Both the position numbers and the translations under genes were made by a program. Source: an uncultured Gammaproteobacteria bacterium (GTDB taxonomy: Bacteria; Actinomycetota; Acidimicrobiia; Spongiisociales; SHLN01). From it: a stretch of DNA of 64,000 nucleotides. The notes beneath the pieces are model-generated. The model searched no databases and was not told the origin of the DNA. It saw only the letters and a list, made by a program, of their open reading frames with translations. How positions within the stretch are numbered: position 1 is the stretch's first letter; each line of letters begins with the position of its first letter. Positions 2,061 through 38,252 of this stretch are shown here, in pieces. The stretch covers positions 10,326 through 74,325 of the forward strand of contig CAXMQV010000005.1 in NCBI GenBank assembly GCA_964195905.1, written 5' to 3'.

Positions 2061-2588
2061 TTGGAAACCCAGCGCCTCTGGCAGGCCCTTCAGCTAAAAC
2101 GCGACGCCTACGTCTGGATGCAGTTCAACCAGGCTGCCAACGGTGACGCCGTCGTCATCGTGGCCGCGGTCTACGCCGTCTGGATCCTGTTTGCGGTCGT
2201 GTTCAGCCTCGGGGGTCTGCCGTTCCTCGCCAAAGGCGACTTCGCCGTCTCCGGATTCATCTCGCTGTTCATCAGCGGTGGGTTCGGCTGGATCCTCGGT
2301 TCGGGGGCGGTGTATGCCATCAACACGTTTATCTTCGAATCCCGGGTCAATTTCGGGGCCATCGTTCCGATCACGGGTTATGCGCACGCCCCGCTCGTCC
2401 TGGTGCCGGTCATTTCGCGGCTGGGCTTGCCGGTCGGTGCAGCCCTCATCTTCGTTGGTATCTGGTCGGCGGCGATGATGGTGACCGGGTTCCAATCCAA
2501 CCTCGACATGACACAGGAGCGAGCCATCGGTGCCGCGCTGACCGCCATGTTCGTGTGGCTCTTGCTGGTCGGCATCCCCGGCTTTTGA
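2061..2588 (+). CDS. Yip1-like integral membrane protein, paralogue-like neighbour
   Basis: 175 aa with a TTG start, the same architecture as the upstream gene, and high GC3. Confidence 0.5.
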   Translation: METQRLWQALQLKRDAYVWMQFNQAANGDAVVIVAAVYAVWILFAVVFSLGGLPFLAKGDFAVSGFISLFISGGFGWILGSGAVYAINTFIFESRVNFGAIVPITGYAHAPLVLVPVISRLGLPVGAALIFVGIWSAAMMVTGFQSNLDMTQERAIGAALTAMFVWLLLVGIPGF

Positions 2589-3316
2589 TCAACTACCGGC
2601 TCGACTTCTCCTACGACGGGAGCGGGTTCTCCGGATACGCAACGCAACCAGAACTCCGGACGGTGCAGGGTGATCTCCAGGGCGCGCTCGGCAAGGTGCT
2701 CGGCGACGTTCGGACCCATGTAGCAGGCCGGACCGACGCGGGCGTTCATGCTCATCATCAGGTCGTCAACGTCGAGGCCGAGCGGGAGATCCCGGTGGAG
2801 AGGCTCCACCGGTCCCTCAACCGAATGCTCGGTCCCGAGATGGCCTTCCAATCGGTGACTATCGCCGACCCGGGTTTCCATGCCCGTTATCACGCCACCC
2901 GCCGCACGTATCGCTACTTCGTGCTCAATCGGCGCTGGCCGGATCCGTTCCGGGCCCGTACCAGCTGGCATTGTCGATATCCCCTCGATCTCGATCGCCT
3001 CAACGCCGTCGCCGGTCATCTCGTCGGAGAGCACGAGTTCGCATCGATGTGCCGCAAGCGGGAAGGCAAGAGCAGCCGCCGCACCGTGGTGGCCGCCGGG
3101 TGGCGAACCGCCCCCGACGACATCGTGATGTTCGAGATCTCCGCCGATTCGTTCTGTCATCAAATGGTGCGCTCGATCGTGGCGCTCTCGGTCGAGATCG
3201 GCCGCGGCAACGGTGAACCGGACCGCGTGCCGGAGATCCTGGCGGGGGAGGACCGCAACGCCGCCCGGGGCGCCGCCCCCTCCCACGGCCTGTTCCTGTG
3301 GCGGGTCGATTACTAG
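2585..3316 (+). CDS. truA: tRNA pseudouridine(38-40) synthase
   Basis: YRLDFSYDGSGFSGYATQP...GRTDAGVHA motif. The ORF is open from GTG 2555, but TTG 2585 overlapping the upstream TGA (TTGA) gives a canonical N-terminus. Confidence 0.9.
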   Translation: MINYRLDFSYDGSGFSGYATQPELRTVQGDLQGALGKVLGDVRTHVAGRTDAGVHAHHQVVNVEAEREIPVERLHRSLNRMLGPEMAFQSVTIADPGFHARYHATRRTYRYFVLNRRWPDPFRARTSWHCRYPLDLDRLNAVAGHLVGEHEFASMCRKREGKSSRRTVVAAGWRTAPDDIVMFEISADSFCHQMVRSIVALSVEIGRGNGEPDRVPEILAGEDRNAARGAAPSHGLFLWRVDY

Positions 3317-3319
3317 AGA

Positions 3320-3472
3320 GTCCCAAGTCCCAAGTCGCACGTCCCAAGCCGGAACGAGCAATCCTCGTTGGGTCTTGGGTCTTGGGTCTTGGGTCTTGGG
3401 TCTTGGGTCTTGGGTCTTGGGTCTTGGGTCTTGGGTCTTGGGTCTTGGGTCTTGGGTCTTGGGTCTTGGGTC
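3320..3472. repeat. Heptamer arrays: 4 x GTCCCAA-type (3320-3347), 20-nt spacer, 15 x TTGGGTC (3368-3472)
   Basis: Counted directly: perfect 7-nt period from 3368 to 3472 (105 nt). The left arm is GTCCCAA GTCCCAA GTCGCAC GTCCCAA and starts 4 nt after the truA stop. Confidence 0.95.
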
Positions 3473-3553
3473 TGGAGAGATCCACATTGCACACCCCGTG
3501 GATCCCGCTATCATTCACCCGTTCCCGCAACCTCTCTGGGGAGTTTTCACCGC

Positions 3554-4015
3554 GTGAAACAACAGAAGACCTATACCCCGCGTCCCGCCGACATCGAGCG
3601 CGTCTGGTGGACCGTCGACGCCACCGACCTGCCGCTCGGGCGGCTCTCCTCGGAAATCGCCCGCATCCTGCGGGGAAAGCACAAGCCGCTCTATACCCCG
3701 CACCTCGATCTGGGCGACCACGTCATCGTCATCAACGCGGACAAGGTGGCAGTGACCTCCAAGAAATCCGAGCAGAAGATCTACTACCGCCACAGTGGCT
3801 TTCCCGGTGGCATCAAGGCCGAATCGTTCGAGCGTCTGCTCGATCGGCGGCCCGAGGTGATCATTGAACGGGCGGTACGCGGCATGCTCCCGAAGAATCG
3901 GCTTGGCAGAGCAATGTTCCGCAAGCTGAAGGTGTATGCCGGACCCGAGCACGGCCACTCCTCACAAAAGCCCCAGCCGCTCGAATTCAAGATTGCGAAA
4001 GTGGAGTCCAAGTAA
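3554..4015 (+). CDS. rplM: 50S ribosomal protein L13
   Basis: The GTG 3554 start gives [23 protein letters not shown]...[10 protein letters not shown]. The longer ORF from 3368 is only translation of the repeat array. Confidence 0.93.
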
Positions 4016-4407
4016 TGGCCGAGCTTCTTGCCAGGGCGACGGGTCGCCGCAAGCGTTCCCGCGCACAAGTGCGCATCATGGAGGGCGAGCCCGGGTTCAA
4101 CCTCAACGGCAAGCCTCTCGAGGAGTACTTCCCGACCATGGCCATGCGGGTGCGTGTGCTCGAGCCGCTCCGGGCGGTGGAGATGGAAGGCCGCTTCGAG
4201 ATCCTCGCAAAACTCGATGGCGGGGGAACCACCGGCCAGATCGACGCCCTCCGACTCGGGATCGCCCGGGCCCTCGAAATCATCGATCCCGAGCTTCGGG
4301 GCGTTCTCAAAAAGGGCGGCTTCCTGACTCGCGACCCACGGCGGGTCGAGCCTAAGAAGTACGGCTTGCGCAAGGCCCGGCGCGCACCTCAGTACACCAA
4401 ACGCTAA
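4015..4407 (+). CDS. rpsI: 30S ribosomal protein S9
   Basis: Ends ...GLRKARRAPQYTKR. TAATG overlap with rplM. Confidence 0.95.
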   Translation: MAELLARATGRRKRSRAQVRIMEGEPGFNLNGKPLEEYFPTMAMRVRVLEPLRAVEMEGRFEILAKLDGGGTTGQIDALRLGIARALEIIDPELRGVLKKGGFLTRDPRRVEPKKYGLRKARRAPQYTKR

Positions 4408-5733
4408 GTGCTCAAAGACGGCGAGCGGCTGTTCGGCACCGACGGCGTTCGGGGCAAGGCAAACGAAGAGCTCACGGTTGATTTCGCCATGGACCTGGCG
4501 CGGGCGGCGGCCGACGATATTTCGGGGCCGATCGTCATCGGCCGTGACACCCGGCGCTCCGGGGAGATGCTCAGCCTGGCCATGCAAGCGGGATTCCACT
4601 CGGTTGGGATCGATACCGAAGACGTGGGCGTCATCCCCACCGCCGCCATCGCCCATCTCACCGATCTCGCCGATGCCTCGCTCGGCGTCGTGGTTTCCGC
4701 CTCGCACAACCCGGCACCCGACAACGGCATCAAGTTCTTCGGCGGTGATGGGGGCAAGCTCTCCGACGCGCTCGAGGACAGGATCGAAGCTCGATTGCGC
4801 CGGGGTGCCCCGTGGCGCACACCGCGAGCCGGCGTCGGCATTCGATTCCCCCGCCCGAACGGGATCGACGAGTATCTCAACTGGTTGAAGAGCGACATCG
4901 CGTACACGCTGCGCGGCCTTGACGTCGTCATCGATGGGGCCAACGGGGCCGCCTTCCTGGCTGCACCCCGCCTCTTTGATGAGCTCGGGCTCAACGTTCG
5001 CTCGGTTGCCTGTGAACCCGACGGCTTGAATATCAACGACGGTTGCGGCGCCACTCATCCCGAGTTCCTGGCCTCCCAGATAGACGGTGAGATCGGGCTC
5101 GTCTTCGACGGCGATGCCGATCGGTTCCTGGCCATCGACGAAGCCGGCGTCCCTCTCAACGGCGACGTCATCATGGCCATCATCGCCCGTCACCTTCACG
5201 AGCAGGGCAAGCTCAAGAACGACACCGTCGTCGTCACGGTCATGACCAACCTGGGGTTTCGCCGGGCCATGGCCGACCTGGACATTCGCGTTATTGAGAC
5301 TGCCGTCGGAGATCGGCACGTGCTCGAGGCTATGCGGCAGCACAAAGCCATTCTCGGTGGCGAGCAGTCCGGGCACGTCATCTTCCTCGACCACATTTCG
5401 ACCGGAGACGGGCTGCTCACCGCCCTTCGACTGCTCGAGGTCGTTGCCGCCACCGGCCGGCCACTCACAGAGCTCCGGACCGTCATGACCAACTACCCCC
5501 AGGTGCTTCGCAATGTTCGGGTCGCCGACCGGGCCGGTCTCGAAAGCGCCGAGGCGGTGTGGGAGGCGGTCCGCCACACCGAAGAACTGCTCGGCGGGGG
5601 CGGCCGTGTTCTCATCAGGCCATCGGGTACCGAGCCTCTCGTGCGCGTCATGGTCGAAGCCGCCACCAAGACCGAAGCAGCCACCATCGCCGACGACCTT
5701 GCGAGAGTGGTTCGAGAGGCCCTCGGCGAGTAG
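4408..5733 (+). CDS. glmM: Phosphoglucosamine mutase
   Basis: LFGTDGVRGKAN and the active-site SASHNPAPDNGIKFF. GTG start directly after the rpsI stop. Confidence 0.93.
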   Translation: MLKDGERLFGTDGVRGKANEELTVDFAMDLARAAADDISGPIVIGRDTRRSGEMLSLAMQAGFHSVGIDTEDVGVIPTAAIAHLTDLADASLGVVVSASHNPAPDNGIKFFGGDGGKLSDALEDRIEARLRRGAPWRTPRAGVGIRFPRPNGIDEYLNWLKSDIAYTLRGLDVVIDGANGAAFLAAPRLFDELGLNVRSVACEPDGLNINDGCGATHPEFLASQIDGEIGLVFDGDADRFLAIDEAGVPLNGDVIMAIIARHLHEQGKLKNDTVVVTVMTNLGFRRAMADLDIRVIETAVGDRHVLEAMRQHKAILGGEQSGHVIFLDHISTGDGLLTALRLLEVVAATGRPLTELRTVMTNYPQVLRNVRVADRAGLESAEAVWEAVRHTEELLGGGGRVLIRPSGTEPLVRVMVEAATKTEAATIADDLARVVREALGE

Positions 5734-5736
5734 TCA

Positions 5737-5824
5737 GTCCCCGGTCCCCGGCGAGCCAACCGCCCACCGCCCACCGTCGACCGTCGACGTTCATCTCGCC
5801 AAGCGGTTGGCGGTTGGCGGTTTG
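5737..5824. repeat. Heptamer-phased element after glmM
   Basis: GTCCCCG x2, GCGAGCC, AACCGCC, CACCGCC, CACCGTC, GACCGTC (5737-5789), then the near-complementary GCGGTTG GCGGTTG GCGGTTT (5803-5823). The gcgagcc..aaccgcc caccg core recurs after trpS (24074-24101). Confidence 0.85.
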
Positions 5825-5879
5825 CCATCAGCCGAAGGCTGATTCAGTGATACGCTGTTTTCGTTGGTGCCGGAGATAC

Positions 5880-6020
5880 GGAAACAGCGCCCGACCTCGC
5901 TTTGCGAGGCGACGAGGAAGAGGGTCATCGAAATGTTCGGCGGATGCCCTCTCGGCCGCTCACGGTCGTAACCGACGGGAAGAAACCCCGGGAGCAATCC
6001 CGGTAACAGAGACCCGGCGG
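5880..6020 (+). ncRNA. glmS ribozyme: glmS glucosamine-6-phosphate-activated ribozyme
   Basis: Core reads A/GCGCC-CGACCUCGC-UUUG-CGAGG-CGACGAGGAAGAGGGUCAUCGAAAUGUUCGGCGGAUGCCCUCUCGGCC, matching the conserved AGCGCC...GACGAGGA...AUCGAA...UUCGGCGGAUGCC...CCCGG segments. A distal CCGGGA-GCAA-UCCCGG helix follows. It lies about 100 nt upstream of the glmS ATG. Confidence 0.8.
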
Positions 6021-6121
6021 ATGTGAGCCCACCTGGTGGGACCGAAGCCCCCTTGTGGGCCGAAGCCACCTGTGGCCGCGCACACCGCGCACACTCCGGC
6101 ACCTGAGAAAAGGAGCTAGAC

Positions 6122-7957
6122 ATGTGCGGAATCATGGGGTACGTCGGACCCCGTCCTGCCAGTCCGATCATTCTTCAGGGCCTCAAGCGGCTCGAATACC
6201 GGGGGTACGACTCGGCCGGAGTGGCCGTGGCCAACAACGGAGCGATCGAGGTCCGGAAGGCAGCAGGCAAGCTCGACCGACTTGCCGACATGCTCGAGAT
6301 CTCGGCGCCGGAAGGTCGACTCGGAATTGGGCACACGCGGTGGGCAACGCACGGTCCGCCGACCGATGTCAACGCCCATCCCCATGCCGATACCGACCAG
6401 GCCTTCGCCATCGTCCACAACGGCATTATCGAGAACTATTACGAGCTCAAAGAGGAATTGGTGGCTGCGGGCCGGGTCTTTGAGTCCGAGACCGACACTG
6501 AGGTGCTTGTGCACCTCATCGCCGATGAATACGACGGCGACCTCGCCGCGGCCGTCAGGCGGGCCGTCGGACGCGCCACCGGGGCCTATGCCCTTGTGGC
6601 GATGACCGCCCATGAGCCCGACACGTTGGTGGCGGTCCGCATGATCAGTCCGCTCGTCATCGGATTCGGAGACGGAGAGACGTTCCTTGCCTCAGGCATT
6701 CCCGCCTTGCTCGATCACACCCGTGAGGTCCTCGTCATGGAGGACGGCGAGATGGCCACCATCACGTTCTCCGGGGTGACGATGGAGAAGCTGGATGGCA
6801 CGCCGGTGCAACGAGAGCGCATGGAAGTGGATTGGGATGTCGAGCAGGCCGAGAAGGGTGGCTATCCGCACTTCATGCTCAAGGAGATATTTGAACAGCC
6901 GCGGGTGATTGCCGACTCCCTGCTGGGACGCCTGACCGGCACCAGGGTGACGCTTGAAGATGTCGGTTGGGATCCCGGATTCGAGGAGTCCCTGGAGAAG
7001 ATCTGGATCACTGCCTGTGGAACGGCGTTCCACGCCGGACTGGCCGGCAAGGAGCTGTTCGAGGGCATGCTGCGGGTTCCCACCGAGGCGGTCTACGCCC
7101 ACGAGCTGCGGTATCGGGACCCCATCGTCGGGCCCAATTCAATGACGCTGGCCATCAGCCAATCGGGGGAGACGGCCGACACGCTGGCAGGTGCCCGGCT
7201 CTTGCAGGAGCGCGGCTCGCGGCTGGTGGCGATCACGAATGTGGTCGGCTCGGCCCTCACCCACTACTCGGACGATGTGGTGTACACGAGGGCAGGCTTG
7301 GAGATCTCGGTCGCCTCGACCAAGGCCTACACCGCCATGCTCATCGCCCAGTATCTGCTGGCGTTGCGGCTCGGGCAGTCGCGAGGGATTCTCGATGAAG
7401 CGATGGCCCGGGACGTCGCGGCGGCCCTCGAAGCGCTGCCCGCCCAGGTGGAATCGCTCCTCTCGAGAGAGGAGGGCATCGACGAGATGGCCCGCTTCCT
7501 GGCCGGCCAACTGGCTCACAAGGACGACATCTACTTCATCGGGCGCGGCCTCGACTACGCGGTCGCCACCGAAGGATCGCTCAAACTCAAGGAAATCAGC
7601 TATCTGCACTCCGAGGCGATGCCGGCCGGGGAGTTGAAGCACGGGACGCTGGCTCTCATCACCGAAGGCACGCCGGTCATCGTGGTCAATACCCAGGCGC
7701 ATGTGTATGACAAGACGGTCTCAGCGCTTCAGGAGGTCAAGGCCCGCGGCGCCAGCGTGATTGCCGTCGCCTACGACGACGACACCGAGATCGAGCACTA
7801 CACGGACCACGTGCTGCGGATTCCCCGCACCATGGATCTGCTGAGCCCGGCGCTCTCGATTGTTCCACTTCAGCTCCTCGCCTATCACGTGGCCGACGCC
7901 CGCGGCCTCGATATCGACCAGCCGAGAAACCTGGCCAAGAGCGTCACCGTCGAGTAG
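6122..7957 (+). CDS. glmS: Glutamine--fructose-6-phosphate aminotransferase
   Basis: MCGIMGYVG N-terminal nucleophile Cys, two SIS domains, and a ...KSVTVE C-terminus. SD aaaaggag upstream. Confidence 0.96.
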   Translation: MCGIMGYVGPRPASPIILQGLKRLEYRGYDSAGVAVANNGAIEVRKAAGKLDRLADMLEISAPEGRLGIGHTRWATHGPPTDVNAHPHADTDQAFAIVHNGIIENYYELKEELVAAGRVFESETDTEVLVHLIADEYDGDLAAAVRRAVGRATGAYALVAMTAHEPDTLVAVRMISPLVIGFGDGETFLASGIPALLDHTREVLVMEDGEMATITFSGVTMEKLDGTPVQRERMEVDWDVEQAEKGGYPHFMLKEIFEQPRVIADSLLGRLTGTRVTLEDVGWDPGFEESLEKIWITACGTAFHAGLAGKELFEGMLRVPTEAVYAHELRYRDPIVGPNSMTLAISQSGETADTLAGARLLQERGSRLVAITNVVGSALTHYSDDVVYTRAGLEISVASTKAYTAMLIAQYLLALRLGQSRGILDEAMARDVAAALEALPAQVESLLSREEGIDEMARFLAGQLAHKDDIYFIGRGLDYAVATEGSLKLKEISYLHSEAMPAGELKHGTLALITEGTPVIVVNTQAHVYDKTVSALQEVKARGASVIAVAYDDDTEIEHYTDHVLRIPRTMDLLSPALSIVPLQLLAYHVADARGLDIDQPRNLAKSVTVE

Positions 7958-7970
7958 CGGCGTCCCCGCG

Positions 7971-7991
7971 GCTACCAGCTACCAGTCGCCA
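7971..7991. repeat. Heptamer array GCTACCA GCTACCA GTCGCCA after glmS
   Basis: Read directly, 14 nt after the glmS stop. Its reverse complement shares ctggtagc/aactgg words with the element at 42601-42628. Confidence 0.7.
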
Positions 7992-8107
7992 GTTTTCTCA
8001 GGGTCGGCGGAGGCTTCGGAGAGGCTTGCACCTTGGAGGGCTAGCCGCCCTCTGGAGTATCCCCAAGATGAAGCTTTCGTGAAAGGTGCTCTCGGTCTCT
8101 GACGGAC

Positions 8108-8162
8108 GCCAACCGCCAACCGCGATCTGAGTTCGGTGGGCGGTGCGCGGTGGGCGGTGCGC
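8108..8162. repeat. Heptamer inverted pair GCCAACC x2 / CGGTGGG-CGGTGCG x2
   Basis: Left arm 8108-8124, right arm 8134-8162. Hand folding gives one A.G mismatch per heptamer. Confidence 0.8.
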
Positions 8163-8180
8163 TCCGATAGGCTCGCCGTC

Positions 8181-8552
8181 ATGAACATCGTTGGCATCGG
8201 GATTGATTTGGCCGAGATCGAACGGGTCGAGAAGCTCTACGGCAAGTATCCGGATCAGTTCCTGGCCCGGTGCTTCACCGAGCACGAGCAGGCCTACGCC
8301 GCCCGGTTTGCCAATCCTGCCCGGCGCCTGGCGGCCCGCTTCGCCGGCAAAGAAGCAGTCATGAAGAGCCTCGGCCGGGGTTGGCGCCAGTTGCGCTGGA
8401 AGGACATCGAGATCACCGGCGGCGGCAAGCCAACGGTTCGCCTGTTCGGTACGGCACTGGAGCGGGCCTCCCAGCTCGGCGTCACCGAGGTCCACGTGTC
8501 GATCACCCATACCGATGTGACCGCGATGGTGCTGGCGATTTCCGTCAGTTGA
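8181..8552 (+). CDS. acpS: Holo-[acyl-carrier-protein] synthase
   Basis: MNIVGIGIDLAEIERV...FAGKEAVMKSLG is typical AcpS. ATG 8181 preferred over the upstream in-frame extension from 8136. Confidence 0.88.
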   Translation: MNIVGIGIDLAEIERVEKLYGKYPDQFLARCFTEHEQAYAARFANPARRLAARFAGKEAVMKSLGRGWRQLRWKDIEITGGGKPTVRLFGTALERASQLGVTEVHVSITHTDVTAMVLAISVS

Positions 8553-8554
8553 GA

Positions 8555-8617
8555 GTTCACAGTTCACAGTTCACAGTTCACAGTCAGAGGGGTATCGACT
8601 GTTGACTGTTGACTGCT
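8555..8617. repeat. Heptamer arrays GTTCACA x4 then GACTGTT x2-3
   Basis: Starts 3 nt after the acpS stop. The cagtc/gactg core pairs across an 11-nt loop, and the outer repeats pair with one mismatch plus one G.U per heptamer. Confidence 0.85.
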
Positions 8618-8659
8618 TGATTGCCGGATGCCCATTCTCGGCACCGGTACTCTTGACCT

Positions 8660-10075
8660 GTGCATCTCGTGATAACCCCTGAAGAGTCGGCCGTGCTCGA
8701 TGCAGCCGCCACTGATCGGATTGAGGCGCTCATGGAGCGGGCCGGACTGTGGGTGGCGCTGGCTGCCGTCGAGATGGGTGCCGGGTATGGATCTCGGGTC
8801 GCCGTCCTGGCCGGTCCCGGCAACAACGGTGGTGACGCCTATGTGGCTGCCAAGTACCTTGTCGGGAGAGGGGCGAAGGTCGTCGTCTATGCCCGCGGGT
8901 CTCCCAAGGGCGAATATTCGGCCGCTCGCAAGGCGTCTTGCGCCGCCACCGCCGCCGGGGTGCGGGTCCTGCCCTTCGGCCTGCCGGAACCTGCCGATCT
9001 CGTGATCGACGGCCTTTTCGGCTCGGGATTTCACGGAGAGCTCCCGGACGATGTTCTCCCGTGGCTCACCCATACCGCCCCCGTCCTCGCCATCGATGTC
9101 CCCAGCGGGCTCAGCGCTGCGAACGGTACCGTGGCAGGAGAAGCATTTTACGGCGACCGCACAGTGACTTTCCACGCTCTCAAGGTCGGGCATCTCCTCG
9201 GAGAGGGACCAGAACGCTGCGGCCGGCTTGACGTTCGCGATATCGGCCTGGGTGGCGGATCTCCCGAACTTCGCCTGGTCGAAGAGAGCGACGCCATCGT
9301 CCCGAATCGATCTCGAACCGCCCACAAATGGTCGGCCGGCTCGGTGCTCGTTGTGGGCGGGTCTCCCGGCCTAACCGGAGCAGTCATGCTGGCGGCCTCG
9401 AGTGCCCTGCAAGCCGGCGCGGGCGCCGTGGCGGCGGCGGTACCCGGCCGGTGGCAGTCGGCCCTGGAAGCCATGAGCGCGGGAGTGATGACACGGGGGA
9501 TCGGGAACGGAGATCGCTTCGAGACGGCCGACGTGGCCGAGTTGCTGGAGCAGGCGGCTCGCTTCGACGTACTGGCGCTTGGTCCCGGCCTCGGCCTCGA
9601 GCAGGAGAAGCTCGTAGGCGAGCTCATGAGCCGCTGGGACGGCAAGTTGCTCCTCGACGCAGATGGCCTCAACGCGATAGTCGACCCTGGCCAGTTGCGG
9701 AGAGCGGGTGGCACCATCATCACCCCCCATGCCGGCGAATTCGGGCGTTTGACCGGCGATGAGGCCACCTATGGCGCCGCATCCAACCTGGCGAACGCCC
9801 AGGATGTCACGGTGCTCCTGAAAGGCAACCCGACCTTCGTGGCCGGCCCCGGGGCACCGTGGGTGATCACCGAAGGCGGTCCGGAGCTCGCCACCGTCGG
9901 GACCGGCGACGTTTTGACCGGGACCGTGGCGGCGCTGTGGGCCCGGGGGCTCGACGCCGTTGCTGCCGCCCACACCGGCGCCTTCTGGCATGGCCGGGCC
10001 GGGCAGTCGCTGGCCGACTGGACGGTCGTCACCGCCGAGGAGCTCGTCGGAGAGATCGGAGTGGTACTGAGATGA
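8660..10075 (+). CDS. nnr: Bifunctional NAD(P)H-hydrate repair enzyme (epimerase/ADP-dependent dehydratase)
   Basis: YjeF-N motif GPGNNGGDAYVAA. C-terminal carbohydrate-kinase part HKWSAGSVLVVGGS...GTGDVLTG. Confidence 0.88.
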   Translation: MHLVITPEESAVLDAAATDRIEALMERAGLWVALAAVEMGAGYGSRVAVLAGPGNNGGDAYVAAKYLVGRGAKVVVYARGSPKGEYSAARKASCAATAAGVRVLPFGLPEPADLVIDGLFGSGFHGELPDDVLPWLTHTAPVLAIDVPSGLSAANGTVAGEAFYGDRTVTFHALKVGHLLGEGPERCGRLDVRDIGLGGGSPELRLVEESDAIVPNRSRTAHKWSAGSVLVVGGSPGLTGAVMLAASSALQAGAGAVAAAVPGRWQSALEAMSAGVMTRGIGNGDRFETADVAELLEQAARFDVLALGPGLGLEQEKLVGELMSRWDGKLLLDADGLNAIVDPGQLRRAGGTIITPHAGEFGRLTGDEATYGAASNLANAQDVTVLLKGNPTFVAGPGAPWVITEGGPELATVGTGDVLTGTVAALWARGLDAVAAAHTGAFWHGRAGQSLADWTVVTAEELVGEIGVVLR

Positions 10076-11169
10076 GGCCGTCCTGGGTGGAAGTCGATCT
10101 CGAGGCGATCCGCCACAATGTTCGGGAGATCAGCCGGGCGGTTGCTCCAGCCGCGTTCTGCGCGGTGGTCAAGGCCGACGGTTACGGGCACGGCGACGTC
10201 CCGGTGGCCGAGGCTGCCCTCCAGGCGGGGGCTGAGTGGTTGGCCGTGGCGACCGTTACCGAGGGCCTGCGGCTCCGCGAGGCCGGCATCGAAGCTCCGA
10301 TCCTTCTCCTGTCTGAGGCCACGGAGGCGGACGTGGCCGCAATCATTGCTGAGCGTCTCACGCCCACTGTGTACTCGGACGGCTTCCTGAGCGCACTAGC
10401 GGCGGCTGCCGGCGATCCGTTGGCAGTGCACGTGAAGGTCGATACCGGCATGCACCGGGTGGGAACCGATGAAGCGACCGCAGCCGGCCTCGTCGCTCGC
10501 ATCGTGGCCGACCCCGGGCTGCGTCTGGGCGGCCTCTGGACCCACTTCCCGTCGGCGGAGGAAGACCCTGCCTTCACCGGCGCCCAGATCAAGCAACTGG
10601 CTCAGTTCGTCGACGCCCGGGTTGCGGCGGGAGCAGCCCCCGACCTGGTGCACACCGCCAACTCGGCCGGCGCCCTGCTCTATCCCGAAGCCCGATTCGA
10701 TATGGTCCGCATCGGCCTGGCCATGTATGGCTGTTATCCATCACCAGCCTGTCGCGAGGTGGTGACGCTGCAGCCGGCCATGCGGGTCGTCTCTCAAGTC
10801 GTTCATGTCAAGCGCCTCCCCGCCGGGTCCCGACCCGCCTACGGCCGCATCCGGCCATTGGCTGAGGAATCGACCGTGGTCACGGTCCCCATCGGATACG
10901 CCGACGGAATCACGAGGCGGCTGGCCAAGATCGGAGGGGAAGTCCTCATCGGTGGCCGGCGGCGATCCTATGCGGGCATCGTGACGATGGATCAGATAAT
11001 CGTCACCATGGGTGACGATTCGGTGCAGCTCGGCGACGAAGTCGTTCTGCTTGGCCGACAGGGAGACGAGGAGATCGACGCCGACGAATGGGCCGGTCGG
11101 CTGGATTCGGTCAGCTGGGAAGTCCTCTGCGGGTTCGGTCCCCGGCTTCCGAGGCGCTACCGAGGATGA
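10072..11169 (+). CDS. alr: Alanine racemase
   Basis: MRPSWVEVDLEAIRHNV...AVVKADGYGHG (PLP lysine motif). ATGA overlap with nnr. The ORF extension from 9859 is rejected. Confidence 0.92.
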   Translation: MRPSWVEVDLEAIRHNVREISRAVAPAAFCAVVKADGYGHGDVPVAEAALQAGAEWLAVATVTEGLRLREAGIEAPILLLSEATEADVAAIIAERLTPTVYSDGFLSALAAAAGDPLAVHVKVDTGMHRVGTDEATAAGLVARIVADPGLRLGGLWTHFPSAEEDPAFTGAQIKQLAQFVDARVAAGAAPDLVHTANSAGALLYPEARFDMVRIGLAMYGCYPSPACREVVTLQPAMRVVSQVVHVKRLPAGSRPAYGRIRPLAEESTVVTVPIGYADGITRRLAKIGGEVLIGGRRRSYAGIVTMDQIIVTMGDDSVQLGDEVVLLGRQGDEEIDADEWAGRLDSVSWEVLCGFGPRLPRRYRG

Positions 11170-12056
11170 CACTCACCTCCGTTCCCGGTATCGGGGTGGG
11201 TCACTGGACCGACCTGGTCGGCCGTACCGGAGTAACCGTGGTGACGCTCCCCGAGCCAAACCGGGTCGTCGCCGAGGTCCGCGGGGCGGCGCCGGGAAGT
11301 CGCGAGCTGGCCCTGCTGGCCCCTGGAATGCGAGTCGAGGAGATTCAGGCACTCGTTCTCACCGGGGGAAGCGCTTTCGGGTTGGCTGCCGCCGACGGCG
11401 TCGTTCGGGCTCTAGAGACAGAGGGCCGCGGCCATCCGACCGCACGGGGACCGGTTCCGATTGTCCCGACCGCCGTCATCTACGACCTGTTGGCCGGAGA
11501 TCCACAAGCCCGTCCGGGGCCTGAAGAGGGGGCGGCCGCCTATGCGGCCGCCGGCACGATTCCGGTGGCCATGGGCTCGGTCGGCGCTGGGACCGGAGCC
11601 CTGGTGGCCGGGTGGAGAGGGCCTGAGCATTTCCGACCGGGAGGTATTGGCTCCGCCAGCACTCGCTCGGGCCCGGCCACCGTCGGCGCCCTGGCCGTTG
11701 TCAATGCGGTCGGGGATATATTCACGCTCGAAGGCGAACCGCTCACGGGAGGGTCACTGCGATCCGGTCCACCGGCGGCGCTTCCGGCCCCGCTCGAGAA
11801 CACCACATTGATCGTGGTCGCCACCAATGCCCGTATCGAACGTAATGACCTCCTGCGGCTGGCTGTGCGGGCCCAGGATGCCGTTGCCGCCTGCGTACGG
11901 CCCGGCCACACTCGATATGATGGCGACGTCGCCTTTGCCGTCTCGTGCGGCGAGGCAGAGGCGGACCTCGATGCGATCGGAGAAGCGGCGTTCGCGGTCG
12001 TCGGCGATGCCATCGAGGCGGCCATACGATCGGCGGACAGCAAGGAAGAGGGATGA
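11166..12056 (+). CDS. P1/S58 (DmpA-type) family aminopeptidase
   Basis: VPGIGVGHWTD...TGVTVV...LTGGSAFGLAAADGV pattern. ATGA overlap with alr. Confidence 0.7.
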   Translation: MTLTSVPGIGVGHWTDLVGRTGVTVVTLPEPNRVVAEVRGAAPGSRELALLAPGMRVEEIQALVLTGGSAFGLAAADGVVRALETEGRGHPTARGPVPIVPTAVIYDLLAGDPQARPGPEEGAAAYAAAGTIPVAMGSVGAGTGALVAGWRGPEHFRPGGIGSASTRSGPATVGALAVVNAVGDIFTLEGEPLTGGSLRSGPPAALPAPLENTTLIVVATNARIERNDLLRLAVRAQDAVAACVRPGHTRYDGDVAFAVSCGEAEADLDAIGEAAFAVVGDAIEAAIRSADSKEEG

Positions 12057-12679
12057 CGAGCGAAGACCGTGCCGGACGGCTCCGGTTACTGGAGAGCGAA
12101 GCATCTGCCTGTACCGACTGCCGTTTGCACGAAAGTCGCACGACGGTTGTGTTCGGCGACGGGGATCCCGACGCCGACCTCATGTTCATTGGAGAAGGCC
12201 CCGGCCAGCACGAGGATGAGCAGGGCCTCCCATTCGTCGGCCGCTCCGGCAAGCTTCTCTCCACCCTGCTCGAGCGAGTGGGATTGAGCCGCCCCGAGGT
12301 CTATATCGCCAACGTGGTGAAGTGCCGGCCACCGGGCAACCGGGATCCGCGTCCCGACGAGATCGCTGCCTGCAAGGGTTACCTGGTCGAGCAGCTCAAG
12401 ATCATCGATCCCGCGGTGGTTGTCACCCTCGGGAACTTCTCCACCAAGTTGCTGCTCAAGACCGAGGTCGGCATCACTCGAATGCGCGGACAGTCCTACC
12501 CGTGGTGGGGACGCCACGTGGTTCCGACCTTTCATCCCGCCGCCGGCCTCCGCAACGGCCCGGGCGTCGTCGAGGAGATGGTGAGCGACCTGCAATTGGC
12601 CGTTTCTGTCATCGAGCAGCGCCCCGAGCCGGCGCCCGTCGAGATCGACGAACCGCACCAGACGGTGATGTTCTCGTGA
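12053..12679 (+). CDS. udg: Uracil-DNA glycosylase, family 4
   Basis: CTDCRLHESRTTVVFGDGDPDADLMFIGEGPGQHED...VVKCRPPGNRDP...TFHPAAGLR. ATGA overlap with the upstream gene. Confidence 0.85.
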   Translation: MTSEDRAGRLRLLESEASACTDCRLHESRTTVVFGDGDPDADLMFIGEGPGQHEDEQGLPFVGRSGKLLSTLLERVGLSRPEVYIANVVKCRPPGNRDPRPDEIAACKGYLVEQLKIIDPAVVVTLGNFSTKLLLKTEVGITRMRGQSYPWWGRHVVPTFHPAAGLRNGPGVVEEMVSDLQLAVSVIEQRPEPAPVEIDEPHQTVMFS

Positions 12680-13131
12680 GCGTCGAAGTGCTGTGCGCCA
12701 CTTCCGCAGATACGATGGCGGTCGGCCGCCGGCTGGCCGGGCTTCTCCGGGTCGGTGATGTCGTGCTCATCGACGGTGATCTGGGCGTCGGCAAAACCAC
12801 CTTCGTGGCCGGGCTCGCCGAAGGTTTGGGCGTCGACGAGCCAATCACCAGCCCGACATTCATCCTCATGCGGACGTACCCCGGGCTCCTGCCCCTCACT
12901 CACGCCGATGTGTATCGGCTCGACACGCTGGCCGAGATTGAAGATCTCGAGCTCACCGAAGCCTCGTCCGACGGTGTGCTCGCAGTCGAGTGGGGAACCG
13001 CCATCGAACAGTGGATGCCCGCCGACCACCTGGTGGTTCGTATCCGGCTCGCTGAGGGCGAGAATCGTCAGATTGAGCTCATTCCCTACGGAAACTGGGG
13101 CACCCGTCCTCTCGGAGAAGTCACCGCATGA
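12676..13131 (+). CDS. tsaE: tRNA t6A37 biosynthesis ATPase TsaE
   Basis: GDLGVGKTTFVAGL...SPTFILMRTY...HADVYRL. GTGA overlap with udg. Confidence 0.88.
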   Translation: MSVEVLCATSADTMAVGRRLAGLLRVGDVVLIDGDLGVGKTTFVAGLAEGLGVDEPITSPTFILMRTYPGLLPLTHADVYRLDTLAEIEDLELTEASSDGVLAVEWGTAIEQWMPADHLVVRIRLAEGENRQIELIPYGNWGTRPLGEVTA

Positions 13132-13835
13132 ACATCCTCGCCATCGAGACCGCCACCCCGGCCTCCTCGGTCGCGCTGGGGACCGACAGTGCACTGCTCG
13201 CTATGTCGCTGCAGGTCGATCGGCGCGGCCATGTCGGCTTCCTTGTGAACGCAATGGATTACTGCTTTCAACAGGTTGGGTGGACTCCGGCCGAACTGGA
13301 TGCGGTAGTCGTCGACGTGGGCCCCGGGCTGTTCACAGGTATTCGGGCCGGGCTCTCCACCGCCCAGGGGGTGGCAGCGGCGACCGGAGCTCAACTGCTC
13401 GGGATCTCCTCGCTTGACGTGCTGGCGTTCCGGGCTTCGACCGGCCGCCGGATCATCTGGCCCGTTGTCGACGTGCGGAGAAATGAGGTGGCGACTGCCC
13501 CATATCGGCCCGTCCCGGGCGGGGTGCTCAGGGACGGTGCACCGGAGGTCGTGACCCCAGAGGGTCTAGCCGCCCTGCTCGACTCCACTGCCGAGGACAC
13601 ACTCGTGGTGGGAGACCACGAGGCGCTCCCGGCGGGGACTCTGCGGGGCCAGCACCGTGTCAAGGTGGGTCGACCCCGCTGGCCGAGCGCCGATGTGCTG
13701 CTGGAGCTGGCCCGTGCTCGCATGGCAAAAGGGGATCTTCCCGCCCCGGACGATGTCCGACCGCTCTATCTGCGGGATCCGGATGTGACCATCAATTGGA
13801 AGGACTACCGGCAAGAGGCGGGGTGGACCGAGTGA
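13128..13835 (+). CDS. tsaB: tRNA t6A37 biosynthesis protein TsaB
   Basis: MNILAIETATPASSVALG N-terminus. ATGA overlap with tsaE. Confidence 0.85.
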   Translation: MNILAIETATPASSVALGTDSALLAMSLQVDRRGHVGFLVNAMDYCFQQVGWTPAELDAVVVDVGPGLFTGIRAGLSTAQGVAAATGAQLLGISSLDVLAFRASTGRRIIWPVVDVRRNEVATAPYRPVPGGVLRDGAPEVVTPEGLAALLDSTAEDTLVVGDHEALPAGTLRGQHRVKVGRPRWPSADVLLELARARMAKGDLPAPDDVRPLYLRDPDVTINWKDYRQEAGWTE

Positions 13836-14317
13836 TGACCATTCGCCCCCTCGAGCACGGTGATCTCGATGCGGTCCTGGAGATCGAAATGGTGTCATTC
13901 GTGGAACCGTGGTCCCGTTCGCTGCTTGCCAAGGAGGTTGCCCAACCGACCAGGCGTTATGTCGTTGTCACCGATCAGGGCGCGATATGCGGGTACGGGG
14001 GGCTCATGCTGGTCGGAGAGGATGCCCATGTGGTGACCCTGGCGGTTGCGCCTGCACGTCGGGAGCGAGGGGTGGGGTCGCACCTGATGATGGAGCTCAT
14101 CGAGATCGCCCGTGCCAACGGTGCCCGGCACCTGACCCTCGAGGTCCGAGAATCGAACCAAGCCGCCCTCGAGTTGTATCGCAAGTTCGCGTTCGAATCG
14201 GCCGGGACCCGCAAGGGCTATTACACCACCGAAGACGCAGTGGTCATGTGGGCGGTAGACATCGACTCGGCCGGCTATCAGGCGACTCTGAGCTCGATCC
14301 GGGAGAAGGCGTCGTGA
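13835..14317 (+). CDS. rimI: Ribosomal-protein-alanine N-acetyltransferase
   Basis: GNAT fold (RRERGVGSHLM), MTIRPLEHGDLDAVLEIE N-terminus, and the conserved position between tsaB and tsaD. Start is ATG 13835 or GTG 13832. Confidence 0.8.
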   Translation: MTIRPLEHGDLDAVLEIEMVSFVEPWSRSLLAKEVAQPTRRYVVVTDQGAICGYGGLMLVGEDAHVVTLAVAPARRERGVGSHLMMELIEIARANGARHLTLEVRESNQAALELYRKFAFESAGTRKGYYTTEDAVVMWAVDIDSAGYQATLSSIREKAS

Positions 14318-15324
14318 GCGATACTCCGGTGGTGCTCGGGATCGAGACCAGCTGTGATGAGACCGGGCTGGGGGTGGTGGCCGGAACCACGATGCGGTCA
14401 AACGTGTTGGCGTCGCAAGTGGACATCCACGCTCGCTTTGGCGGTGTCGTGCCCGAGGTGGCCGCCCGTGCCCACGTTGAGTCGGTGCGCCACCTCGCCC
14501 ATCGGGCGTTGTCGGAGGCCGGGGTCCACCAGAGCGACCTGGACGGGATCGCGGCTACCCAGGGCCCGGGCCTCGTCGGTGCCCTCGTGGTCGGCTTCAC
14601 GTTTGCCAAGTCGCTGGCGTGGGCGCTCGGCAAGCCATTCATTGCGGTCAACCACATGGAGGGCCACCTGTTCGCTCCGCTGCTGGGCGATTACGACTTC
14701 GCTCCGCCGGCCGTGGTGCTGCTCGCCTCGGGCGGTCATAGCCAAATCGTCCACATGAAGGACTGGGGTGACTACGAGATCCTCGGGTCCACCATCGACG
14801 ACGCGGCCGGTGAGGCCCTCGACAAGACAGCCCGATTCCTCGGGCTCGGCTATCCGGGCGGGCCGGCCATCGACCGCGAGGCCGAGAACGGCGATCCTGC
14901 CGCGATTGCCTTCCCCCGGGCGTTGTCAGACCGTCCATACGACTTCTCCTTCTCGGGCCTCAAGACCTCTCTCATCACCTACGTCCGGGACCATCGCGAT
15001 GCCGGCACGCTGCCACCAATCCCGGATGTCGCGGCCTCGTTGCAGGAAGCGATTGTGGACGTACTCGTCGCCAAGACGTTCAACGCCGTCGATGCCACCG
15101 GCGTCAAAGTGGTCGGCGGCGGGGGAGGGGTCATGGCAAACACCCGTTTGCGGGCCCGGTTGCAGGAGGAAGCAGATCGGAGGGGGGTCACGTTGTTCGT
15201 GCCGCCCCGCGATCTCTGCACCGACAACGGCGCCATGATCGCCGTCGTCGGTGCCCACAAACTCGCCCGCGGCGAATCAAGCGGTTACGGCGGCGACGTT
15301 CAGGCGGGCTTGTCACTGGCGTGA
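14314..15324 (+). CDS. tsaD: tRNA N6-adenosine threonylcarbamoyltransferase
   Basis: VLGIETSCDETGLGVV...NHMEGHL...GGVMANTRLR. GTGA overlap with rimI. Confidence 0.93.
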   Translation: MSDTPVVLGIETSCDETGLGVVAGTTMRSNVLASQVDIHARFGGVVPEVAARAHVESVRHLAHRALSEAGVHQSDLDGIAATQGPGLVGALVVGFTFAKSLAWALGKPFIAVNHMEGHLFAPLLGDYDFAPPAVVLLASGGHSQIVHMKDWGDYEILGSTIDDAAGEALDKTARFLGLGYPGGPAIDREAENGDPAAIAFPRALSDRPYDFSFSGLKTSLITYVRDHRDAGTLPPIPDVAASLQEAIVDVLVAKTFNAVDATGVKVVGGGGGVMANTRLRARLQEEADRRGVTLFVPPRDLCTDNGAMIAVVGAHKLARGESSGYGGDVQAGLSLA

Positions 15325-33138: not shown

Positions 33139-35220
33139 TTGGATACGCGGGCTGACGAGCGACCGGATGACAGCATCGGTGCGGACCTGCCGGTGGAACC
33201 GGCCGGGTCCCGTCCATATCCGGACATGCGCCCCCTGCTCGCCGTTGTGGGGGCATTTGGCCTCGCCTACTACTTCGCTTTCACCCGCCTGGTACGCGGT
33301 GATGTCTTCAACTCCTACCCGTTCATCTCCGCCGATGGATTCGACTGGCTCGTCGAGGGCCTGGCGGTAGCCCGCTGGTTTGATGGGATCGCCGTTCCCG
33401 AACTCCCAGCGGCTCGTAGTCCCGGCTTTGTCAGCGTGACGTTCGCCGATTTCCATATTGGAGCAGACGGCGGTGTGATGTTCGCCGTCATCGCTGCGGC
33501 GGTGGTCGCCTCGCTGGCGGCGATGCTTGTTCTGGCCCGATGGAACCGGGTGCCGCGCTATCAGGCCGGGGTCGTGGTTCTCGCCTTCGCCCTCTCTCCA
33601 CTCGGGTACTACCGGATGTGGATTCTCTCTGATCAGATCGCCGCTGCTCTGCTCGCCGTAGCGGCGGTCGCGCTTTACCCGTATGTCACCAGGGGAAGCC
33701 GGTGGTGGCTGGGCCTGGCAACCCTCGCAGCCGCTCTGGGGGGCGCTACCCAGCTCTACGGGCTGATCGGGTTCGGGGTGGCGGGTGGATGGGTGTTTGT
33801 CGTCTCAATGTGGCGTCGGAAGCCCGACTATCTGCTGGCCGGTGCCCTCGTGGCGGCGCCGGCGACAACACTCGCGCTCTCGAAAGTCTGGTTGGGTCAG
33901 GTGCCGCACAGCAGCGTGCCACCTCAACTCGGCTTGATCGAGCTCAGCTTTGACATGCTCGGGTTCTATGTCAACGCCTGGTCGTTCGCGTTCCTCGCCC
34001 TTCTGCCACTTCTCGTCGTGCTCTTCATCTATCGACGGCACCAGGTGGTGAGATCCCCACTTCTGACCGGCTATTGGCTCAGCGTGCTGGTGCTGATGGC
34101 GGGGACGTTCTTCTACCAGTTCGAGGAATTCCGGTTCACCATTCCAACCGGTTCGATGCTCGGCATTGCCATCGTGGCGAGCCTGTCGGGCGAGCACCCT
34201 TTGCCACGGCCGCGGGAACTGATGGTGGTCACAGCAACGCTTGCCATCATCGTGGGTCTCACTTTGGCGCCGGCCAGCTACTGGATTCCGAGATGGTCGG
34301 AAGTCAGGCTGGATCCATCCGGCACCTATTTCTCCCGTCTGATCACCGTCGGGCCGGTGGATCGGTTCTCGGTTGGCCCCTCTTGCGATTTCGACCGGGT
34401 CTGCCGGGGTATGGCGATCCCTGCCGGTGTCACCGACCACGAGCGCGCCCTCTTTGCTATCTACCGCCATCTCGCCAATGCCGACCCCTCGACATCGGTT
34501 GAGGATTTCCTGGAAGGGGTATACAGCGGCCTCTTCCTGGTGCGCAATACCAACGATTGTTGCGTAGCCGAAACCTCACTCTCGTTCGGGCTGACCGGTG
34601 ACCGGCCGATTAGCGGCAACTGGGATGGGCGGGCGGTCGGAACCCTATTCGGAACCGACACACCGGGACTCTTCCGGAGCGGCGTGTGGCTGCTCGTGAC
34701 TTCGGTTGTGGCACGCCAGGCCGACCTGGAGTTCAGATTCGGTGAAGCCGGGGATGTGCCCGTTGTCGGGGATTGGGATGGCGACGGGATCGATACCGTC
34801 GGAGTGTTCCGCGGCGGGGTCTGGATGCTTCGGAATTCGAATTCGGCGGGGCCGGTCGATGTCGAGTTCAGGTTCGGTGAAGTCGGGGACGTGCCGGTTT
34901 CAGGCGATTGGGACGGGGATGGGGTCGACACGGCCGGTGTCTACCGCAACGACCGTTGGCTGCTCAGGAATTCCAACGCGGAGGGTCCGCCCGACGTCTC
35001 GCTGGTTATGGGCGGCGACCTCGGCCGGCCGGTGGTGGGGGATTGGAATGGCGATGGTGCCGACACGATCGGCCTCTTCGACCAGGGATTCTGGAGGGTG
35101 CGTAATTCGACTACCACCGGTCCTGACGATCTCCAGTTCCATTTTGGCGCCTGGGGTGACCTACCCCTCACCGGTGACTGGGATGGTGATGGAGTCGACA
35201 CCATTGGTGTTGCACGGTAG
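33139..35220 (+). CDS. Polytopic membrane protein with five C-terminal GDWDGDG (FG-GAP/VCBS-like) repeats
   Basis: About 10 hydrophobic helices (residues ~30-400), then 5 repeats of ~45 aa: FRFGE.GDVPV.GDWDGDG.DT.GV.R.G.W.LRNSN. Start is TTG 33139 or ATG 33226. Confidence 0.7.
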   Translation: MDTRADERPDDSIGADLPVEPAGSRPYPDMRPLLAVVGAFGLAYYFAFTRLVRGDVFNSYPFISADGFDWLVEGLAVARWFDGIAVPELPAARSPGFVSVTFADFHIGADGGVMFAVIAAAVVASLAAMLVLARWNRVPRYQAGVVVLAFALSPLGYYRMWILSDQIAAALLAVAAVALYPYVTRGSRWWLGLATLAAALGGATQLYGLIGFGVAGGWVFVVSMWRRKPDYLLAGALVAAPATTLALSKVWLGQVPHSSVPPQLGLIELSFDMLGFYVNAWSFAFLALLPLLVVLFIYRRHQVVRSPLLTGYWLSVLVLMAGTFFYQFEEFRFTIPTGSMLGIAIVASLSGEHPLPRPRELMVVTATLAIIVGLTLAPASYWIPRWSEVRLDPSGTYFSRLITVGPVDRFSVGPSCDFDRVCRGMAIPAGVTDHERALFAIYRHLANADPSTSVEDFLEGVYSGLFLVRNTNDCCVAETSLSFGLTGDRPISGNWDGRAVGTLFGTDTPGLFRSGVWLLVTSVVARQADLEFRFGEAGDVPVVGDWDGDGIDTVGVFRGGVWMLRNSNSAGPVDVEFRFGEVGDVPVSGDWDGDGVDTAGVYRNDRWLLRNSNAEGPPDVSLVMGGDLGRPVVGDWNGDGADTIGLFDQGFWRVRNSTTTGPDDLQFHFGAWGDLPLTGDWDGDGVDTIGVAR

Positions 35221-37499: not shown

Positions 37500-38252
37500 A
37501 TGAGACGAGCCATCGTCGTGGCCGTGAGTACTGCGCTGTTGATGATACTGTTCGGCGGCGTTGCGGCCGCCAACTCCTCCATCGACGGCGACGCAACTGA
37601 GGCCGATTCGGTCGTTCGAATCGACGATGACGTTGAGGCGAGCCACATCTGGAAGCGCTGTCGCCACTTGTTCGGTGACGAGGACCTGACCGCGGTTGCC
37701 AAAGAGCGCTGCCGGCAGCTGTGGAAGCGGTGGTGTGAGGCCCATCCGGATTCCCGCCGGTGCCATCGCCCGGATCCACCCCCACCGCCACCGCCGTGCT
37801 ACGACCGGTTGACCGATCACCGATGCATACCGATTCCGTGTCTCAGTGTCGATCGGTTGGTTGACCGGCGCTGCATTCCGAACCCATGTCTCATCGATCA
37901 GCTGGCCGACCGGCTGTGCATCCCTGATCCGTGCCGAATCGCGGATTTGGCAGCGGACCGGGTGTGCGTGCCCGATCCGTGTCTGCGAGCAGACGGAATC
38001 CTCCCGTGCGTGCCCGACCCGTGTCTGCGAGCCGATGGAATCATCACGTGCGTACCCGACCCCACGGAAGTCCCCAAGGTCCGCCCCATCGACCGGCCGG
38101 TCGACCGTCCGATCGATGTCCCACCGGATCGTCCCTCCGACAAGCCACCGGAGGTTCGGCCGAAGGGTCGGACCCCCGACCGCACAACCGACCGTCCAAT
38201 CGATCGAGTAGGAAATGACTTTCACCTTCGAGCTCTCGACGCCGATTCCTAG
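37500..38252 (+). CDS. Secreted protein with six tandem C-[IV]-P-x-P-C repeats and a Pro/Asp/Arg-rich tail
   Basis: Signal-like [26 protein letters not shown]. Repeats [14 protein letters not shown] / [14 protein letters not shown] / [14 protein letters not shown] / [14 protein letters not shown] / [12 protein letters not shown] / [10 protein letters not shown] (DNA 37800-38060, 42-48-nt units). SD-like aaggaaagg upstream. Confidence 0.6.

Follow-up and report, generated by a model that had tools for sequence, protein, structure and literature searches.

The spacer between truA and rplM in a 64,000-nt stretch of contig CAXMQV010000005.1 (assembly GCA_964195905.1), hereafter the window, carries 15 perfect tandem copies of the heptamer TTGGGTC; coordinates below refer to the window unless another contig is named. 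The source genome (G000) is a metagenome-assembled genome (MAG) of 2.7 Mb, 147 contigs and 64% GC from an uncultured member of the Acidimicrobiia, as placed by an RplM search, and the sequence runs that contain the locus are marine sediment metagenomes. We consider it likely that the array is the G-rich arm of an intergenic hairpin repeat element, expanded by slippage, which belongs both to a wider class of bacterial heptanucleotide repeats and to a paralogous family shared with the sister species G004. Near-neutral slippage expansion of an uninterrupted hairpin arm at the 3′ end of truA is the most likely explanation for its present form.

The element (Table 1) consists of a C-rich left arm, which begins 2 nt past the truA stop codon and is interrupted, hence “frozen”, followed by a short loop and a perfect G-rich right arm, and the two arms form inverted repeats that are ~80% complementary. 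Tandem Repeats Finder (TRF) returned 15.1 copies at 100% matches for the right arm and 4.3 copies at 82% for the left, in agreement with the first-pass annotation, which had described 15 TTGGGTC copies opposite 4 GTCCCAA-type copies. The distance of 82 nt that it gave between the array and the rplM start was likewise reproduced, with the last complete unit ending at 3472 and the GTG located at 3554. In the predicted core hairpin, the pairing of the arms is broken by one U·U mismatch in every heptad. It had also been proposed that 11 repeats are left single-stranded, but the surplus UUGGGUC units are predicted to pair with each other through G–U and G–C pairs (−32.7 kcal/mol), or to form G-quadruplexes (G4s), and therefore need not be single-stranded.

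Copy number at this locus varies between conspecific genomes. In a conspecific MAG (L111/L217), with flanks that are 99.6–99.9% identical, the array has 5 units compared with 15 in G000, while the remainder of the spacer is identical, and this 5-copy allele folds into a balanced version of the core hairpin (−52 kcal/mol). The contig of a second conspecific MAG (L112/L218) starts inside the array and retains 82 nt of it, corresponding to at least 11.7 units. Over the ~11 kb shared with L217, where the region beyond the main array was compared in a MAFFT alignment of positions 3474–14428, there are 22 single-nucleotide polymorphisms and 5 indels. Each indel changes a heptamer array by a whole number of 7-nt units, at 3368 (−10 units), 5773 (−1), 8147 (−1), 8554 (−2) and 8596 (+1). 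Because the four shorter arrays are far below any assembler k, these differences are real and not artefacts. The comparison points to slippage polymorphism in the population, and the suggestion of a slippage-prone variable-number tandem repeat (VNTR), made originally from the window alone, is supported. The first-pass annotation had also regarded the open reading frames (ORFs) generated by the repeat on both strands (WVLGLGS and PKTQDPR repeats) as spurious. They do appear in the ORF list, but the length difference between the 5- and 15-copy alleles, 70 nt, is not divisible by 3, and the ORFs are therefore neither genes nor a coding repeat.

The figure of 15 copies is less secure than the polymorphism of the short arrays. 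In Logan assemblies made with k = 31, the array is reduced to a cyclic unitig of 37 nt that gives no copy number, and the depth of this unitig is 17–52 times that of the flanks, compared with 10.9 times expected from 15 copies. The contig of one conspecific MAG and that of the congener G003 break at or near the array, the latter 36 nt before rplM, and the longest arrays in G000 pile up at 103–109 nt (the three longest perfect ones at 103–106 nt, and up to 109 nt with near-perfect ones included), which suggests that the true length distribution is cut off by short-read assembly. These features would be explained if the array were real while the values of 15 (and 5) reflected the handling of a repeat by the assembler rather than true alleles. 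We regard this as unlikely, since the 36-nt array of the 5-copy allele does not reach the final k used by common assemblers and should thus be backed by spanning reads or k-mers, at least 82 nt of array were recovered independently in L112, and the four short arrays vary by whole units between the same MAGs. Furthermore, other organisms account for at least part of the excess k-mer depth. Arrays of TTGGGTC flanked by AT-rich sequence were found in runs X1–X4 and X21, which means that other, unrelated organisms share the unit, and because such organisms are present in the same sediments, the k-mer depth ratios are unusable for estimating copy number. One of these arrays with AT-rich flanks (e.g., CAAAAACTTTTTAAAAGGACTGG...) is in a metatranscriptome contig. 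In JGI metagenomes, conspecific contigs were not found; the best RplM identity was 77%, and period-7 arrays were present at 4 of 80 loci.

The left arm is more than a decayed array, as judged from its recurrence together with the loop at other loci. Its 30-nt string GTCCCAAGTCCCAAGTCGCACGTCCCAAGCC, including the odd GTCGCAC unit, is found again on contigs C22, C139, C13, C60 and C125 of G000, and the paralogous copies as well as those in G004 share the loop consensus GCC(A/G)GAA(C/A)GCGCGATC(T/C)TC. The architecture common to the family is a fixed, interrupted C-rich arm, a conserved loop of ~20 nt, and a pure (TTGGGTC or TGGGGTC)n arm of varying length. Since the C-rich arm is interrupted and the G-rich arm pure and variable in every copy, the asymmetry of the arms at the truA–rplM locus is a property of the family. 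A search with nhmmer identified 6–8 full-length copies in G000, and a 17-nt signature has 10 matches in G000 (5 of them exact) and 8 in G004, with counts no higher than background in 29 other relatives. With ~6–10 copies in G000 and ~8 in G004, the family seems to be shared with this sister species only. Several paralogous copies with common non-repeat sequence, as expected for a dispersed element, are accordingly present. No loop homology was found among the other unit families, and dispersal as paralogous copies therefore applies to the GTCCCAA/TTGGGTC family only. In the G004 copies, which have the same architecture, the G-rich arm contains 2–12 perfect units. A Y1/RAYT transposase (PF01797; RAYT, REP-associated tyrosine transposase, where REP denotes repetitive extragenic palindromic) was found in none of the 31 genomes searched (G000 and 30 relatives), compared with 6 of 14 control genomes, and identity as a REPIN, the RAYT-linked type of element, was rejected on this basis.

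The locus is one of many in G000. Among perfect arrays with three or more copies, 160 are of period 7, compared with 20 of period 6 and 0 of period 8, which excludes a chance origin. TRF identified 590 period-7 arrays at ~415 loci, at least 404 of which are wholly intergenic although ~86% of the genome is coding, while arrays of period 6, 9 and 12 are almost all within coding sequence. The modal length of the period-7 arrays is 4.0–4.5 units. Adjacent arrays are arranged as inverted pairs in 49 cases, compared with 5 direct pairs, and the vocabulary of units is restricted: GAC/GTC occurs in 61% of the units (26% expected), and CTC/GAG in 2% (27% expected). Mismatches between the arms of inverted pairs are mostly A·A, T·T and C·T, and G·U is nearly absent. 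At the level of the unit, 13 of the 49 inverted pairs are exact complements and the remainder have one systematic mismatch per heptad; besides the pair studied here (3319–3473), examples are found at C22 32238–32343 and C139 7877–7955. In the G-tract families, the central GTC (or GAC) is on the same strand in both arms, producing a T·T or A·A mismatch every 7 nt (9 pairs). Other arrays of 14–16 units are located at C114 45699–45881, C82 5990–6092 and C83 38391–38494, all of them 103–109 nt long.

Comparison of the spacer in seven genomes of the same genus (RplM 82–92% identical; last ~85 nt aligned) reveals a sharp boundary between the element and the sequence that precedes rplM. From TTGCAC at 3487 onward, everything is conserved across the genus and a sister genus, and nothing upstream of this point is; the array ends 13 nt upstream of the −35-like TTGCAC hexamer. 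On the truA side of the spacer, the TruA C-terminus (...GLFLWRVDY*) is kept in the congeners. In nine genus and family genomes, conservation is at least 90% for CTATCAT and for the TGC of the −35 hexamer, and CCGTTCCCGCA is invariant. This conservation suggests that the block is probably the promoter of rplM itself together with a leader of the L13 operon, for which Rfam contains no matching family (only spurious miRNA matches, E ≥ 0.15). Since the promoter-like block is downstream of the array, the array would be located upstream of the rplM transcript, in the 3′ region of truA, and not inside a truA–rplM–rpsI transcript as proposed in the first-pass annotation.

The variable upstream part of the spacer, by contrast with the conserved block, is a hot spot for heptamer arrays. 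In G004 (~80% nucleotide identity), the same element is found in the truA–rplM spacer with ~14 TTGGGTC units, 12 of them perfect. The spacer of G006 contains (GTGGTCA/GCCGGTC)x11 and (GACAGTT)x3, that of G001 (GGCAATA)x13, that of G007 (GCGTACT)x8, and that of G009 (GACTGCC)x4 with (CTGCTTC)x4, while no array is present there in G005 or G002. Array density across the order is patchy: it is high in G000, G004, G006 and G001, arrays are present in G020, G022 and G025, and density is almost nil in the congener G005 and in genus g2. Because G005 is poor in arrays compared with four rich congeners, the trait has been gained or lost within the genus, which hints at a genetic determinant. Over a syntenic 18 kb, G005 (L083, L118; ~79% nucleotide identity) is essentially without heptamer arrays. 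The G-rich arm at a second G004 locus (L223) also has 12 perfect units, and with an arm of equal length at that site, locus-specific upkeep of the long arm between truA and rplM is unsupported.

In the explanation that we favor, the element would fill the non-conserved part of the spacer, from 2 nt past the truA stop codon to 13 nt before the −35 of rplM. Its basal state would be a balanced hairpin of ~4.5 + 5 units with a folding energy of approximately −50 kcal/mol, as in the conspecific MAG, and the 15-copy allele would correspond to this basal hairpin with 10 units added by replication slippage. The general behavior of microsatellites suggests that the arms would have become unequal because only the uninterrupted arm slips, while the interrupted arm is frozen. 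The hairpin is probably located at the 3′ end of truA transcripts, and expression of rplM–rpsI would be expected to depend little, or not at all, on copy number.

A different role would follow if the array were co-transcribed with rplM–rpsI, either as a continuation of truA transcription or from a start site farther upstream, such that the surplus UUGGGUC units tune mRNA structure, processing or translation according to copy number. The geometry is like that of the hmw repeats of Haemophilus influenzae, where a long heptamer simple sequence repeat (SSR) pairs with a shorter complementary arm and the surplus is outside the hairpin (PMC12721329); copy number is polymorphic here, and G004 keeps a long arm in the same spacer. 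However, the conserved −35/−10-like block and leader are downstream of the array, the sequence adjoining this block is unchanged by copy number, G005 and G002 have no array while other congeners have unrelated units, and the array is one of ~590 with no visible tie to gene function. Such a regulator is therefore quite unlikely. The same applies to the dedicated tunable spacer, sponge or attenuator suggested in the first-pass annotation, which is difficult to reconcile with array-free congeners, differing units, a 5-copy allele, and ~590 sister arrays.

The position of the arrays relative to genes may bear on a transcription-linked role of the family. Of 587 arrays in G000, ~160 begin no more than 10 nt from a stop codon. 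Where an array abuts a stop codon (≤15 nt), the sense strand is C-rich in 140 of 162 cases (140:22, p = 3e-22), and of 11 convergent spacers, 10 have a C-rich arm after both stop codons. The skew is confined to the arrays (+0.19 compared with +0.02 in array-free post-stop sequence), and the locus studied here follows the rule, with the C-rich arm placed after the truA stop codon. These observations, together with the presence of a Rho gene in G000 and the stability of the hairpin at −50 kcal/mol, could reflect a functional element at the truA 3′ end that acts in termination (by Rho loading or as a hairpin without U-tract), in protection of the mRNA 3′ end, or in insulation of the rplM promoter, with expansion of the G-rich arm being incidental. 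On the other hand, a terminator scan of 3200–3700 identified no terminator-like site and no U-tract after the hairpin, where GGGUCUGGAGAG or additional UUGGGUC units follow instead. Sense RNAs show no significant gain in folding stability over their antisense counterparts (19/30, p = 0.13), and because the arm mismatches include almost no G·U, selection for RNA pairing is not apparent. At ~28 nt, the C-rich stretch is also short for a Rho utilization (rut) site and has its complement directly after it, and arrays are common in divergent spacers too (1.21 per kb). We consider a functional 3′-end element possible but rather doubtful; it is compatible with the explanation that we favor.

A more far-reaching version of this idea is that heptad hairpins are strand-specific post-stop signals maintained by the host, in which the C-rich sense arm would be where Rho loads or an RNase processes the transcript, and the G-rich VNTR arm would tune read-through and insulation toward the next gene. 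If so, read-through from truA into the rplM–rpsI promoter would vary between 5- and 15-unit strains, and sequence-specific maintenance or spreading without RAYT would account for the paralogous copies and for the limited set of units. We find this scenario highly improbable.

Several points weigh against near-neutral slippage, or limit how far it can be taken. The 15- and 5-copy values both rest on third-party short-read assemblies, and the longest arrays are near the span limit of a 150-nt read, such that longer alleles would be invisible. A strict sigma-70 consensus scan of 3200–3700 called no promoter. Retention of the TTGGGTC unit and of a long arm in the same spacer of G004 is not obviously predicted by pure neutrality, and the 140:22 sense-strand rule suggests a transcription-linked constraint that the explanation does not cover.

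With 15 GGG tracts separated by 4-nt loops (GGGTCTT), the array might alternatively have been selected for tandem G4s in the non-template DNA strand or in RNA. The unit matches G3N4, and ViennaRNA with G4 energies places quadruplexes among the surplus units in the minimum free energy (MFE) structure. In addition, G4 formation in vitro and a preference for four units have been described for GGGAATC and GGGGA(C/T)T repeats (PMC4692102). In G000, however, the preference for four units is the same for units with and without a G3/C3 tract (median 3.9 in both; 366 of 590 arrays lack the tract), and the commonest units, GTCACCG and GTCAACG, are unable to form G4s. The stop-proximal arm at the truA–rplM locus is also not the G-rich one, unlike in Xanthomonas and Nostoc. 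A selected G4 element is very unlikely for these reasons, and the four-unit preference of units that cannot form G4s weakens the published G4 rationale.

The locus belongs to a known class of bacterial heptanucleotide repeats, as represented by the short tandemly repeated repetitive (STRR) sequences of cyanobacteria and the GGGNATC repeats of Xanthomonas and Nostoc. The G-rich heptamers GGGAATC (Xanthomonas) and GGGGA(C/T)T (Nostoc), for which no function is known, are biased to intergenic regions, where they occur in hundreds of copies with a preference for four units and with 70–75 inverted pairs that can fold into stem-loops (PMC4692102; Rehm et al. 2015). Perfect runs of 14–26 units occur, gene context is constant while length and sequence vary between relatives, and within 50 bp of the stop codon the G-rich strand is the sense strand (PMC4692102). 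The same paper attributes the over-representation of long heptanucleotide SSRs in many bacteria to Mrazek and co-workers (2007). The arrays in G000 are similar with respect to the 7-nt unit with a G3 tract, the excess of period 7, the intergenic location, the length of about four units, the inverted pairs, and the length variation in the same context. They differ in having an Acidimicrobiia host and many unit types instead of one consensus, in a four-unit preference that extends to units without G tracts, and in stop-proximal arrays that are C-rich on the sense strand (140:22), which is the reverse orientation. Furthermore, the GTCCCAA/TTGGGTC family combines a fixed interrupted arm with a conserved loop.

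The STRR sequences are tandem heptanucleotides of Calothrix PCC 7601 (cited in PMC4692102). As for the arrays in G000, they are intergenic tandem heptamers with a GTC core. The units CCCCAGT, TTGGTCA and CAACAGT are said to have been described for them by Mazel et al. in 1990. Rotations of two of these units are found among the arrays of G000 (ACTGGGG in 9 and AACAGTC in 16), but TTGGGTC is none of the three, and the host is a high-GC actinobacterium and not a heterocystous cyanobacterium. A Phormidiaceae cyanobacterium MAG (L053) has ~12 heptamer arrays in 5 kb, and at its positions 2379–2474, (TAATGGG)x6 and a perfect (CAATTAC)x7.3 are placed directly upstream of rplM, a parallel within the phylum that bears STRR.

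In the hmw1/hmw2 genes of H. influenzae, the SSR (AUCUUUC)n in the 5′ untranslated region has a copy number of 11–63 in nature; it is located between promoter and start codon, is transcribed and processed by RNase III, and expression falls as copy number rises (PMC12721329). In both systems, a long polymorphic 7-nt SSR pairs with a shorter complementary arm and leaves a surplus outside the hairpin, the shorter arm being the G-rich one in hmw. Unlike hmw, which is a contingency locus for a surface adhesin, the array described here has housekeeping neighbors and is one of hundreds, and, judging by conservation, it is upstream of the promoter-like block. The TAACTGA direct repeats of marine Beggiatoaceae, cyanobacteria and Bacteroidetes are intergenic (PMC4679880). 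They resemble the arrays of G000 as abundant intergenic heptamers, found also in ribosomal-protein operons, with a patchy phylogenetic distribution, but consist of a single AT-rich unit in 2–6 copies, are placed a few nucleotides from start codons, and almost never form inverted pairs. REP/REPIN elements, which are linked to RAYT, and pneumococcal BOX elements are short dispersed intergenic hairpins located after genes, BOX with an internal module of variable copy number. The element studied here shares with them the dispersed hairpin form and the placement after genes, but differs in the absence of Y1/RAYT from G000 and 30 relatives, in arms built of heptads, and in a family size of only ~6–10 copies.

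Compared with these systems, the differences are the host phylum, the many unit types, the four-unit preference without G4 potential, the reversed strand rule, and a paralogous family that pairs a frozen arm with a slipping one. The locus provides a case of a heptamer VNTR in one natural population, with 5- and 15-copy alleles beside essential ribosomal genes, and it extends bacterial heptanucleotide repeats to the Acidimicrobiia. The four-unit preference without G4 potential and the sense-strand rule both bear on the question of why 7-nt repeats exist.

Table 1. Features of the truA–rplM–rpsI region and of the other polymorphic heptamer arrays (window coordinates)
Feature	Position	Strand	Basis or remark
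truA (tRNA pseudouridine synthase)	2585..3316	+	PF01416 on the 243-aa product of the identical gene in L111/L217; TAG at 3314-3316
C-rich left arm, GTCCCAA GTCCCAA GTCGCAC GTCCCAA	3319..3348	+	TRF period 7, 4.3 copies, 82% matches, unit AGTCCCA
Loop CCGGAACGAGCAATCCTCG with small internal stem GGAACGAG/CUCGUU	3349..3367	+	Predicted fold
G-rich right arm, perfect (TTGGGTC)x15.1, variable microsatellite	3368..3473	+	TRF period 7, 100% matches
Core hairpin, left arm and first ~5 right-arm units	3317..3405	+	Predicted MFE −50 kcal/mol
Putative rplM promoter: −35-like TTGCAC (3487-3492), 16-nt spacer, −10 TATCAT (3509-3514)	3487..3514	+	Conservation
Conserved leader CCGTTCCCGCA (3519-3529) and Shine-Dalgarno GGGGAG (3538-3543)	3519..3543	+	Invariant alignment columns
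rplM (ribosomal protein L13), GTG start	3554..4015	+	PF00572; same start called in L111, L112, L113
rpsI (ribosomal protein S9)	4015..4407	+	PF00380; identical protein in two other MAGs and four Logan assemblies
Polymorphic array ACCGTCG	5773..5788	+	One unit fewer in L111, L112, L113
Polymorphic array	8134-8162	+	−1 unit in L217
Polymorphic array	8546-8584	+	−2 units in L217
Polymorphic array	8597-8620	+	+1 unit in L217

The practical effects of such arrays include spurious ORFs, over-extended gene starts and broken short-read assemblies. When ORFs are called from the first in-frame start, rplM gains 62 codons because its reading frame is extended through the array to a TTG at 3368, and over-extended starts are likely at other genes of G000 that are preceded by arrays. 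The window also contains tandem repeats of longer period that are unrelated to the heptamer family, located at 34729–34973 (135 nt x1.8), 37964–38062 (42 nt x2.4) and 61139–61313 (51 nt x3.5).

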